A stretch of 42,423 nucleotides of DNA from Candidatus Saccharimonadales bacterium (GTDB lineage: Bacteria > Patescibacteriota > Saccharimonadia > Saccharimonadales > JBBQKK01). The notes below the pieces were generated by a model that made no database searches, was not told the origin of the DNA, and was given only the letters and a program-made list of their open reading frames with translations. Location: positions 1-42,423 of the forward strand of contig JBBQKK010000002.1 of assembly GCA_038326785.1 (NCBI GenBank), written 5' to 3'. A program made the position numbers and the translations under genes. This document shows positions 8,287 to 9,541 of the stretch, piece by piece (positions within the stretch are counted from its first letter, which is position 1; the number at the start of each line of letters is the position of its first letter).

Positions 8287-8313
8287 GTTAACAGGGGCGG
8301 TTGGATCATTTGG
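8287..8313 (+). pseudogene. Degenerate duplicate of the tRNA-Val 5' end with its upstream GTTAAC..CAG context
   Basis: GTTAACAG+GGGGCGGTTGGATCATTTGG compares with GTTAACGAATAACAG+GGGGCGATTAGCTCATTTGG at 8377-8411 (17/20 identical in the tRNA part). tRNA likeness is lost after that. Confidence 0.5.
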
Positions 8314-8391
8314 AGCAGTTCGCTGCAAGATCAGAGATAGCGCAAGCGCTCTGGACGAATGAGTAACTACAGATCAGTTAACGAATAACAG

Positions 8392-8468
8392 GGGCGATTA
8401 GCTCATTTGGCTAGAGCGCCACATTGACGTTGTGGAGGTGATAGGTTCGAATCCTATATCGCCCACCA
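8392..8468 (+). tRNA. tRNA-Val (anticodon GAC)
   Basis: Acceptor GGGCGAT/ATCGCCC, anticodon arm CCACA-TTGACGT-TGTGG, T arm ATAGG-TTCGAAT-CCTAT, A73 and an encoded CCA. Confidence 0.92.
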
Positions 8469-8508
8469 TATAAAAAGACCAGCTATAAGTTGGTCTTTTT
8501 ATATGGTG
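8464..8508 (+). terminator. Long hairpin that includes the tRNA-Val 3' end
   Basis: CACCATATAAAAAGACCA pairs with TGGTCTTTTTATATGGTG (18 bp). A paralogous hairpin lies at 8612-8656. Confidence 0.55.
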
Positions 8509-8564
8509 ATTATAAGTTCGAACCGTAGGGCGAAGCCCAGGTTTGATCTTCGAAGGCTATCACA

Positions 8565-8618
8565 GGAGTTTACTCCGAGAAAGACTGAAGAAGTAACCAT
8601 CCTATATCGCCCACCATA
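8565..8618 (+). repeat. Junction motif (GGAGTTTACTCCGAGAAAGACTGAAGAAGTAACC) fused to an exact 20-nt copy of the tRNA-Val 3' end
   Basis: ATCCTATATCGCCCACCATA at 8599-8618 is identical to 8451-8470. The motif matches 331-364. Confidence 0.75.
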
Positions 8619-8656
8619 GTAAATACCCACCTACACGGTGGGTTTTTACTATGGTG
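8612..8656 (+). terminator. Second hairpin, built on the duplicated tRNA-Val 3' end
   Basis: CACCATAGTAAATACCCACC pairs with GGTGGGTTTTTACTATGGTG around a TACAC loop. Confidence 0.5.
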
Positions 8657-8830
8657 GATAGTTGCATGAGAACCGTTCCGCGAAGCGGAGGTTCGGTGAA
8701 GCAAGGTTGCGCGCAGATGCTAGCATCGAGCACAACTGCAGCGGAAAAGGACAAAGTCCGCTATCCTATATGATTGAAAATTGTAAAACTATTGTCCTGT
8801 AACATTGAGTTCACACAAACACTTATCCGA

Positions 8831-8858
8831 AGACTGAAGAAGTAATCATCCCATATCG
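8831..8858 (+). repeat. Third, more diverged copy of the junction motif plus a tRNA-Val-like 3' piece
   Basis: AGACTGAAGAAGTAATC is followed by ATCCCATATCG. A further ATCCTATAT lies at 8763-8771. Confidence 0.5.
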
Positions 8859-9541
8859 AATCGCTCCGCAGTAATTGGCATCGACTTAAGGTGTGGCCCT
8901 TTAGCTGATTTTCGATAGTCAGATAATTAATGAGCATCACTAATAAATAAAAGCACTCGTTACTGATAATAAAATTTTAATTTATATACATCTTCAGCCC
9001 GCCAAGCCACTAATGTACTCAGTGCGTAAAATCTATTTACTCAATGGGCCTAAAGGTCTATCCAGTTCATGACATTTGCATAATTTTTGCTTTTTCGGAT
9101 ACTAGCCCTAGCCCTTAGTCATGGCTCGTGGATGTTCTCATAAGCCCCAGGGCTACTACCCACTCATTTAGTTAGCGGATATTGTGCGACGTAATGATTA
9201 GGAAGGCAGACTAGCCAATATAGGCAGAGGCGTTCCATAACACCATATGAAAATAAACGGGTAGGGGGTATATAGGCGTAGCATTAAAATAAGCGAAATT
9301 AGTAGGCTAGTGGTTGGTAGACACGACGTCATGAGACCTACCATATATGGTATACAGCAAATAACGCTTGTGAATAATTAACAGTTCATATATCATAAAA
9401 AGTATAGAACTGCAGAGGTAGTACTAGTACCAAAAGGGTGGTGTAAAAGTAACAATAATAAAGTACTAGCACAAAACGGCTAGTATGCTATGATTGATGT
9501 AGACGAATTTTCTCAGGTGTTATTTCGTCTCGAGAAGCCGG

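Follow-up and report, generated by a model that had tools for sequence, protein, structure and literature searches.

Gene-less, hairpin-forming units stacked behind tRNA genes of Saccharibacteria: a possible family of miniature integrative elements

The question raised by the tRNA-Val(GAC) gene of a Candidatus Saccharimonadales bacterium (contig JBBQKK010000002.1) is why its 3' end recurs several times in the non-coding DNA behind it, together with long hairpins. The gene lies between nrdR and thrS in the stretch of 42,423 nt that was analysed as a whole and is referred to below as the window. A sequence-only reading of this locus had proposed repeated site-specific integration at the T loop, with attR-like scars left behind and with selection acting on their RNA or DNA structure. 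Our own answer is a tentative one: we take the array for a stack of three insertions of a family of non-autonomous, non-coding miniature elements, which in Saccharibacteria are placed at tRNA 3' ends only. We infer the mobility of these units, their action as folded single-stranded DNA, and the enzyme that would move them; their architecture and its recurrence were observed.

The array consists of two intact units (8451-8598 and 8599-8762), a decayed third unit and a final 3'-end remnant (Table 1). The sequence ATCCTATATCGCCCACCATA at 8451-8470 has an exact second copy at 8599-8618, and the displaced tRNA ends decay with their distance from the gene: 20 of 20 nt are retained in the copy behind unit 1, 9 nt in the next one and 10 of 11 nt in the last, and unit 3 is largely unrecognisable. 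This gradient fits newest-first stacking, with the oldest insertion farthest from the tRNA, as had been supposed from the sequence. The motif AAGACTGAAGAAGTAA(C/T)C adjoins ATCC at 8581-8598 and 8830-8847, i.e. ahead of the second and fourth 3'-end copies. Self-comparison recovered all the repeats listed in the sequence-only reading, both long hairpins and the GAACCGT..AGGTT elements (8520-8543 and 8670-8693). The compensatory change between the GGGC/GCCC and CCGC/GCGG stems was confirmed as well, but the first of these mini-hairpins occupies 8528-8538 and not 8527-8537. Tandem Repeats Finder gave no repeat in the array because the divergence between units is too high. When folded as single-stranded DNA, units 1 and 2 differ strongly from shuffled sequence (z = -7.7 and -7.6, respectively). 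No credible open reading frame (ORF) was found in the region 8469-8870, in agreement with the remark that the units are too small to encode anything.

The 5' side of tRNA-Val carries partial copies of its own. A degenerate direct copy of the upstream context and of tRNA positions 1-19, noted previously at 8287-8313, was found with 88% identity over 25 nt, although its span is 8289-8313. It is followed by a 22-nt hairpin insert (GCAGTTCGCTGC), about eight more tRNA bases and an inverted copy of the D arm (8346-8363). Over 8289-8391, the 5' side of the gene mirrors the pattern of its 3' side.

The same architecture is found at tRNA-Val, tRNA-Asp, tRNA-Arg and tRNA-Thr genes of distant Saccharibacteria, and is no peculiarity of this locus. 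The relatives of the neighbouring NrdR protein come, without exception, from metagenome-assembled genomes of this group (TM7, part of the Candidate Phyla Radiation, CPR). Among 27 relatives with tRNA-Val near nrdR (loci of relatives bear L numbers), two (L023 and L029) repeat the last 18 nt of the tRNA about 150 nt downstream, and a third (L021) carries the same insert with a decayed repeat; two loci from one metagenome scan (L040 and L041) each have a unit behind tRNA-Val with an exact 18-nt repeat. Seven units of the tRNA-Val type could be aligned end to end, and a covariance model of these whole units (model R1) found related ones behind tRNA-Asp (L024, L042, L050, L022, L023, L010, L005), tRNA-Arg(CCT) (L012, L042, L001) and tRNA-Thr (L013, L001), in every case with the displaced 3' end of that very tRNA behind the unit. 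From 15 cores at four tRNA species a core-only covariance model (model R2) was made and then run over 490 kb of Saccharibacteria DNA. All 18 matches with E < 1e-6 are located downstream of a tRNA gene and on the same strand, 14 of them at a distance of 9-91 nt, two as second units of arrays, and two about 1.1-1.3 kb off, behind an intervening ORF. Carriers were found among 8 of 26 tRNA-Asp genes, 5 of 36 tRNA-Val genes (in addition to the divergent copy of L029), 3 of 6 tRNA-Arg genes and 2 of 32 tRNA-Thr genes, and among none of 29 tRNA-Gly and 6 tRNA-Pro genes. A model-free count gave a similar picture: the last 16 nt, with no more than two mismatches, are repeated downstream of 18 of 134 tRNA genes, 17 times at 109-187 nt and once at about 1.1 kb. 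With lengths of about 130-200 nt, the units are homologous over their full extent among many genomes and across the four tRNA species. The presence of the same architecture in many independent assemblies from other projects demonstrates that the units are conserved in relatives, and rules out chance or an assembly artefact as their source.

Comparison of units residing at different tRNAs allowed the target-derived parts to be told apart from those that are the element's own. A unit is composed, in this order, of segments D, T and R, a C-GNA-G mini-hairpin, segment D' and a core, after which the next D begins. D corresponds to tRNA positions ~59-76; T is a terminator-like hairpin in which the outer pairs join CCA with TGG; R repeats the T arm and part of the acceptor 3' strand in inverted and partly degenerate form; D' is a direct copy of positions ~44/49 to 58, typically GGTTCGG. 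The core, of 55-65 nt, contains the hairpin P3, in which an outer and an inner stem enclose an internal loop with conserved CAG...CGAG; one subtype has a short hairpin, P4, in addition. The GAACC...GGTT stem results from pairing of R with D', and this stem tracks the host tRNA, being GAACTG/CAGTTC at tRNA-Thr, GAACCC/GGGTTC at tRNA-Arg and CGGCGATC/GATCGCCG at tRNA-Asp.

The inverted T-arm copy, which had escaped the sequence-only reading, is present in each unit. Both in sequence and in the predicted fold, the partners of R are D', reached through the mini-hairpin, and D, reached through T; the target duplex is thereby rebuilt from the inverted and direct copies. In the window, the copy in unit 1 reads TGGTGATTATAAGTTCGAACC, the true reverse complement being TGGTGGGCGATATAGGATTCGAACC, and its local alignment reaches z = 2.9, compared with up to 7.7 in relatives. 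For the best inverted match to the gene's own T arm in the 120 nt downstream, the median score is 22 at the 17 loci with a displaced tRNA end, versus 12 at the 116 loci without one (Mann-Whitney p = 5e-11). Within the T loop, the start of the direct repeat falls at positions 58-60, both in the window and for the majority of copies in relatives, and at 60-63 in three tRNA-Asp copies; the T-loop junction proposed from this single locus is therefore upheld for nearly all copies at four tRNA species. At least three further filler families, to which some of the 18 repeat-bearing genes of the model-free count belong, follow the D-T-R...D plan, the length of the direct repeat varying between families from 18 to 26 nt. 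One unit in L050 lacks a core altogether and consists of R and a small hairpin followed by an uninterrupted direct copy (D), which indicates that the core and the inverted-repeat scaffold are separable layers. Relatives without units have plain terminators where the T hairpins would be.

The copies also bear on the direction and history of insertion. In L001, the displaced tRNA-Thr end is placed 5 nt before tRNA-Gly, and in eight insert-free relatives it is tRNA-Thr itself that ends 0-14 nt before tRNA-Gly. As the spacing in L001 resembles that of the insert-free loci, the downstream copy is the original 3' end, and the copy in the working tRNA came with the insert. Subtype 1, which has no P4 and ends in GAAGTAAYC, was seen in this genome only, in units 1 and 3 behind tRNA-Val and in the copy behind tRNA-Asp; unit 2 represents a subtype ending in CGGAAAAGGACRAAGTCCGCT, as found in L040 (tRNA-Val) and L024 (tRNA-Asp). 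Such a mixture shows that the array is more than a simple local tandem duplication, and that one subtype has reached two tRNA genes within the lineage.

A separate problem is what maintains the hairpins. In the seven whole units, 79% of the cells in stem positions pair, and both sides have changed in 13 of 26 pairs; in the 15 cores these values are 87.5% and 12 of 14. None of 500 shuffles matched the observed covariation score, and slid-partner controls paired in only 26-44% of cells, so the covariation first noticed between two units of the window holds with more copies. Watson-Crick pairs account for 172 of 200 cells, with 3 cells of the G-T type versus 7 of the A-C type, and the folding energy has no consistent strand bias. 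In most copies, the arms of the inner P3 stem form a perfect inverted repeat with only 0-2 nt at its centre. C-GAA/AAA-G triloops, which are classic, very stable DNA mini-hairpins, make up the small hairpins. The stem signal favours constraint, or templated correction, acting on DNA hairpins over selection of RNA; the compensatory changes may reflect maintenance of palindromes at the DNA level instead. The comparison of G-U with A-C pairs and of the energies of the two strands does not decisively separate RNA from DNA. Of the proposal that the structure is under selection, the covariation is retained, and no RNA signature is seen in the compensatory changes.

The same data have to be considered in the light of a rather unlikely alternative, in which the units are functional structured trailer or spacer RNAs from the tRNA transcript: R, D' and D would close a tRNA-like helix, P3 and P4 would bind a protein or act in processing, and the copies would be selected paralogues. 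Strongly covarying helices and the conserved bases of the P3 internal loop (CAG...CGAG) are what such RNAs would be expected to display, but an excess of G-U pairs and a strand bias of the folding energy are absent, and palindromes perfect to centres of 0-2 nt are unusable for RNA hairpins. A function of this kind would also agree with the retention of units in very reduced genomes over deep host divergence, and with their orientation, which is always that of the tRNA. The copies located between tRNA-Thr and tRNA-Gly reside inside a tRNA operon, and hence must be transcribed, and the one in L001 has no terminator-like hairpin; most units, however, are preceded by such a hairpin. Free decay of copies (unit 3, D4 and the truncated tRNA-Asp copy) and patchy presence (Asp 8/26, Val 5/36, Thr 2/32) are difficult to reconcile with selected paralogues, and no Rfam family was matched. 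In a search of the window region and of L040 and L041 with Rfam 15, at gathering and at permissive thresholds, tRNA was the only match, everything else remaining far below the gathering scores.

How the proposed miniature element could act may be pictured as follows. A unit folded as a single strand would pair R with D via T, and R with D' via the mini-hairpin; together, R, D' and D would reproduce the tRNA-gene duplex from ~44 to 76, the core branching off at 58/59. A circular form of the unit would recombine with the gene at the T loop, at 58/59. This would leave the tRNA intact, with its last 18 nt and its terminator supplied by the element, and the old 3' end and the old neighbours displaced downstream. 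Repeated events would pile up units, the newest one adjoining the tRNA and the older ones decaying. A candidate mover is a host Xer-type tyrosine recombinase, which would act in trans, as for CTXphi. One enzyme-free alternative would be that DNA is taken up and recombined by RecA, with homology arms provided by the conserved tRNA gene and by the 18-nt D. The phenomenon is real and general, and undescribed as far as the searches show. We consider it quite possible, if somewhat short of probable, that it represents a miniature integrative element aimed at tRNA genes, a gene-less, folded mimic of its target. The full version of this scheme is doubtful: there, cassettes of about 150 nt without genes would form a single-strand three-way junction copying the target, insert at 58/59, change targets by re-copying their arms, and be driven by a host recombinase or by uptake with tRNA-anchored recombination, which would make them the smallest self-contained integrative elements yet seen.

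Several observations weigh against the integrative element. The weak point shared by all mobility models is that the local tRNA is matched by D, R and D' alike: for a unit to move to another tRNA species, these three segments would have to be copied anew from the new target, and gene conversion, template switching or a similar additional process would be required. Hints of such re-copying are anecdotal: R in L010 follows a local variant, and D with T is duplicated exactly, over 57 nt, at tRNA-Asp of L023. No excised form, empty-site polymorphism or autonomous partner turned up. The window's own protein has no record, and among 5.8 billion proteins searched the nearest NrdR is 67% identical, and hence there is no close strain to compare; none of the NrdR homologues listed comes from a unit-bearing locus. 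A Pfam scan of the larger ORFs of the window (about 30) revealed no integrase, transposase or reverse transcriptase, and the sole tyrosine recombinase seen in relatives is a syntenic, housekeeping-like Xer-type gene with no link to the units. The homology of units across hosts whose NrdR proteins are ~45-55% identical could mean vertical inheritance under selection; a comparison of the divergence of tRNA-Asp elements with that of their hosts has no power, as the hosts are all about equally distant. Finally, the copies between tRNA-Thr and tRNA-Gly must be transcribed, which leaves room for an RNA role.

Replication errors might also generate repeats of this type. According to this explanation, to which we attach a low probability, the units are passive by-products of template switching or fold-back at the terminator palindrome and the T arm, of unequal crossing-over and of arm-to-arm correction, having neither mobility nor function. 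The direct-inverted-direct order of D-T-R-D is the exact product of two template switches, and the local tRNA is invariably the one that D, R and D' match. The exact 57-nt duplication in L023, the core-less unit of L050 and the mirror-image arrangement 5' of tRNA-Val could all have been formed in this way, and the near absence of G-T intermediates suits templated correction. Nevertheless, such errors leave unexplained the homology of the non-tRNA core (P3/P4) and of the mini-hairpin between tRNA loci and genomes, the constant position of the core at 58/59, and the occurrence of subtype-1 cores at both tRNA-Val and tRNA-Asp of this genome.

That the units are scars of kilobase-sized, integrase-bearing islands or prophages, inserted at the T loop and later deleted so that attR copies and arm remnants were left, is very improbable: direct repeats from the T loop to CCA are the classic tyrosine-integrase signature at such genes (in the scheme of sublocation classes reportedly set out by Williams, 2002), some arrays (L024, L005) have ORF-bearing inserts between units and the repeat length differs between families (18 to 26 nt), but independent deletions would not yield end-to-end homologous units of 130-200 nt in many genomes and at four tRNA species, no integrase remnant is present in or beside the units, and covarying hairpins with an inverted T-arm copy are foreign to known attP arms. 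From the original suggestion of attR-like scars, the direct repeats starting in the T loop survive; the larger elements do not, as the units are complete members of a family of ~130-200 nt. A decayed convergent tRNA gene or tRNA-like gene was also dismissed, because ARAGORN finds none and the acceptor 5' strand is absent, and so were domain V of a group II intron, a retron, an IS110 bridge RNA and the ends of IS200/IS605 elements, for which there is neither an Rfam match nor an adjacent reverse transcriptase or transposase, and to which a target repeat of 18 nt is unsuited. Four patterns searched in viral contigs (the tRNA end with hairpin and GAACCG, a recurrence of the tRNA end 130-160 nt away, the junction at P4, and the P3 core) gave chance coding matches or none. 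BLAST of 8469-8870 against phages and plasmids gave no relevant match, and no description of the element was found in the literature.

Among known systems, the Xer-exploiting integrative element (IMEX) CTXphi offers the most instructive comparison. CTXphi is a phage genome of several kb that uses a folded single-stranded attP and has dif as its target. Like it, the units are stacked in tandem at one site which is regenerated by each insertion, with the newest beside the live site; their inverted target copies fold to a double-stranded mimic of the target, and they encode no recombinase. They differ in that the target is the T loop of a tRNA gene and not dif, used via host XerC/D; in their size of about 150 nt, with zero genes and no recombinase tied to them; and in the target-derived segments, which vary with the tRNA species. 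Tyrosine-integrase islands of the T-loop class likewise produce a repeat from the T loop to CCA, restore an intact tRNA, leave the old 3' end downstream and accumulate insertions. The units, by contrast, have neither integrase nor cargo in their ~150 nt, carry an inverted T-arm copy and covarying hairpins, and share one core family among four tRNA species. Integron cassettes resemble them in forming arrays of short units that end in an imperfect palindrome, in conserving structure over sequence, and in having the boundary within a conserved box. The attC sites of cassettes recombine as folded single strands, and the outer stem of P2 does contain AAC...GTT; however, this stem (GAGAACC/GGTTCGG) fits RYYYAAC/GTTRRRY only at the AAC/GTT triplets. 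Moreover, unlike in integrons, the window has no integron integrase, no attI or promoter platform was seen, the units lack ORFs, and the array is anchored at a tRNA.

Miniature inverted-repeat transposable elements (MITEs) and repetitive extragenic palindromes (REP/REPIN) are also non-autonomous, multi-copy sequences, small and non-coding, which form hairpins and show compensatory evolution in their stems. In contrast to them, the units are not dispersed, as all 18 strong matches follow a tRNA on its strand; 18-26 nt of target sequence make up the flanking repeat, in place of a short fixed duplication; and no related insertion-sequence or RAYT gene was seen. Unlike the terminal inverted repeats that belong to MITEs themselves, R and D, though mutually inverted, are copies of the target. 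With the cis-mobilizable elements (CIMEs) that stem from integrative conjugative elements, the units have in common att-like flanks, a lack of recombination genes and possible movement in trans, but CIMEs are kilobase-sized deletion derivatives of known parents, whereas the units have no known parent and a defined, conserved fold.

Table 1. Positions of the tRNA-Val array and of related features in the window
Feature	Position	Strand	Basis	Details
tRNA-Val(GAC), functional gene between nrdR and thrS	8392..8468	+	ARAGORN; Rfam tRNA model, 65.5 bits	
5'-side partial copies of tRNA-Val	8289..8363	+	repeat families; sequence reading	
D1, first of the direct-repeat series, last 18 nt of tRNA-Val	8451-8468	+		
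T1, long hairpin, 5' arm starting within the tRNA 3' end	8464..8508	+	inverted repeat and DNA fold	arms 8464-8484/8488-8508, 21 nt, 95% complementary; CACCA pairs with TGGTG; interior terminator-like by eye (A-tract, GC stem, T-tract)
R1, degenerate inverted copy of the tRNA-Val 3' part	8504..8524	+	local alignment	
P2 of unit 1, outer stem GAACC/GGTT from R1 and D'1	8520..8546	+		D'1 is GGTTTGA, 8540-8546; cap is the mini-hairpin GGGC-GAA-GCCC, 8528-8538
Core of unit 1, subtype 1, without P4	8547..8598	+	model R2 match 8537-8606, 62.5 bits; core alignment	inner P3 hairpin CAG-GAGT-TT-ACTC-CGAG, 8563-8579; right end GAAGTAACC adjoins the next ATCC
D2, tRNA-Val 3' end displaced by unit 1, copied exactly over 20 nt	8599..8618	+		
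T2, long hairpin, CCACCA pairs with TGGTGG	8611..8657	+	inverted repeat and DNA fold	arms 8611-8631/8637-8657, 21 nt, 95% complementary; interior scores as an intrinsic terminator, 8625-8643 (terminator scan)
R2, inverted copy	8652-8674	+		
P2 of unit 2, outer stem GAACC/GGTTC	8670-8694	+		inner hairpin CCGC-GAA-GCGG, 8678-8688; D'2 is GGTTCGG, 8690-8696
Core of unit 2, subtype 2	8697..8762	+	model R2 match 8687-8770, 91.8 bits, best of the whole data set	P3 8706-8736, outer stem GTTG/CAAC, inner stem GATGC/GCATC; P4 (GGAC-AAA-GTCC) 8749-8759; right end CCGCT adjoins ATCC
Unit 3, decayed	8763..8847	+	repeat families; sequence comparison with unit 1	D3 remnant ATCCTATAT, 8763-8771; subtype-1 core remnant CACAAACACTTATCCGAAGACTGAAGAAGTAATC, 8814-8847; middle unrecognisable
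D4, oldest displaced 3'-end remnant, ATCCCATATCG	8848..8858	+		1 mismatch in 11
Truncated subtype-1 unit behind tRNA-Asp (218-294)	295..380	+	model R2 match 303-372, 47.8 bits	core 313-364, ending CTGAAGTAACC; then displaced tRNA-Asp 3' end ATCCGGTCGGACCCCA, 365-380

As regards the surroundings of the array, nrdR (7470-7976, minus strand) and thrS (starting at 9663) are separated by about 1.7 kb of non-coding DNA. Across relatives (loci L001-L032, L040 and L041), tRNA-Val with its unit is found in either orientation between thrS and nrdR, which implies at least one small inversion in place. Several DnaA-box-like sequences, TGTGGATAA / TTATCCACA, occur at 7905-7950 and in the nrdR/thrS intergenic regions of L018, L020, L040 and L041; a replication origin near the array was ruled out, as the GC skew is positive over the entire window. 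Upstream of nrdR, at 8019-8153 (minus strand), there is an ORF of about 40 codons with a conserved ..F.LFYEE.. motif, which is found in most relatives, often with GTTAAAC ahead of it. The interval of about 600 nt from the array to the thrS leader (8870-9480) contains no ORF, RNA-family match or recognisable unit remnants. A palindrome of the GTACTAGC type is present near 9464-9485 and also in relatives. The thrS leader itself (~9480-9740) is T-box-like, with a weak Rfam T-box match (9620-9737, E = 9.8) and with GGTGGAACCGCC at 9720-9731, a motif also found ahead of thrS in L002, L018, L029, L041 and L042.

Other fragments and inserts were noticed near tRNA genes. Between successive tRNA-Asp units, L024 (10399-11873) and L005 (9056-10099) contain ORFs of 163, 183 and 347 codons with no function assigned, and each of these inserts is bounded by a short copy of the last 9-10 nt of tRNA-Asp, as if gene-bearing inserts shared the site. 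In the window, the interval that separates tRNA-Ile from tRNA-Ala behind the 16S gene (35136-35291) has two hairpins, the first at 35185-35226 with outer stem CTTGCTTG/CAAGCAAG and the second at 35233-35255, followed by a tRNA 3' fragment, GGTCGCAGGTTCGAGTCCTGCCAAACCCACCA (35257-35288), which has a complete T arm and differs from the sequence of tRNA-Ile. This looks like another case, carrying a foreign or older 3' end. Downstream of tRNA-Pro, at 15360-15616 (minus strand), a long-range stem GCTTGCGTGCTTG...CAAGCACGCAAGC, missed by both models, surrounds hairpins containing GCGCAG. The 5' half of a second tRNA-Gly, broken in the anticodon loop, is present just upstream of the working tRNA-Gly in L042 (~12980-13080, minus strand), and L013 has a similar partial 5' copy; thus, other kinds of tRNA fragments gather near these genes too. 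Elsewhere in the window, the RNase P RNA (16529-16993) measures 465 nt against a model of 367 positions and so has sizeable insertions. In the region 32656-37339, tRNA-Ile and tRNA-Ala come after the 16S gene, and a subtilase gene stands in place of a 23S gene, none being found in the next 7 kb, which indicates a split rRNA operon.

Genomes of Saccharibacteria, as of other bacteria of the CPR, are very small (about 1 Mb) and are thought to be poor in mobile elements. Here, a gene-less family of ~150-nt units occupies the 3' flank of a sizeable share of some tRNA genes (Asp 8/26, Arg 3/6). Displaced 3' ends and tRNA fragments near these genes are easily misread, and annotation should take them into account. 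If the units are RNAs, they would form a new class of tRNA-linked RNA. If they are mobile, an essential and universally conserved gene would provide a harmless landing pad for a parasite, and a new recombination route might be involved, either through a folded single-strand mimic of the target or through tRNA-anchored uptake, which would be a new mode of mobility in the ultra-small CPR genomes. Either way, successive events at a single site can be read from the stacked and dated units.

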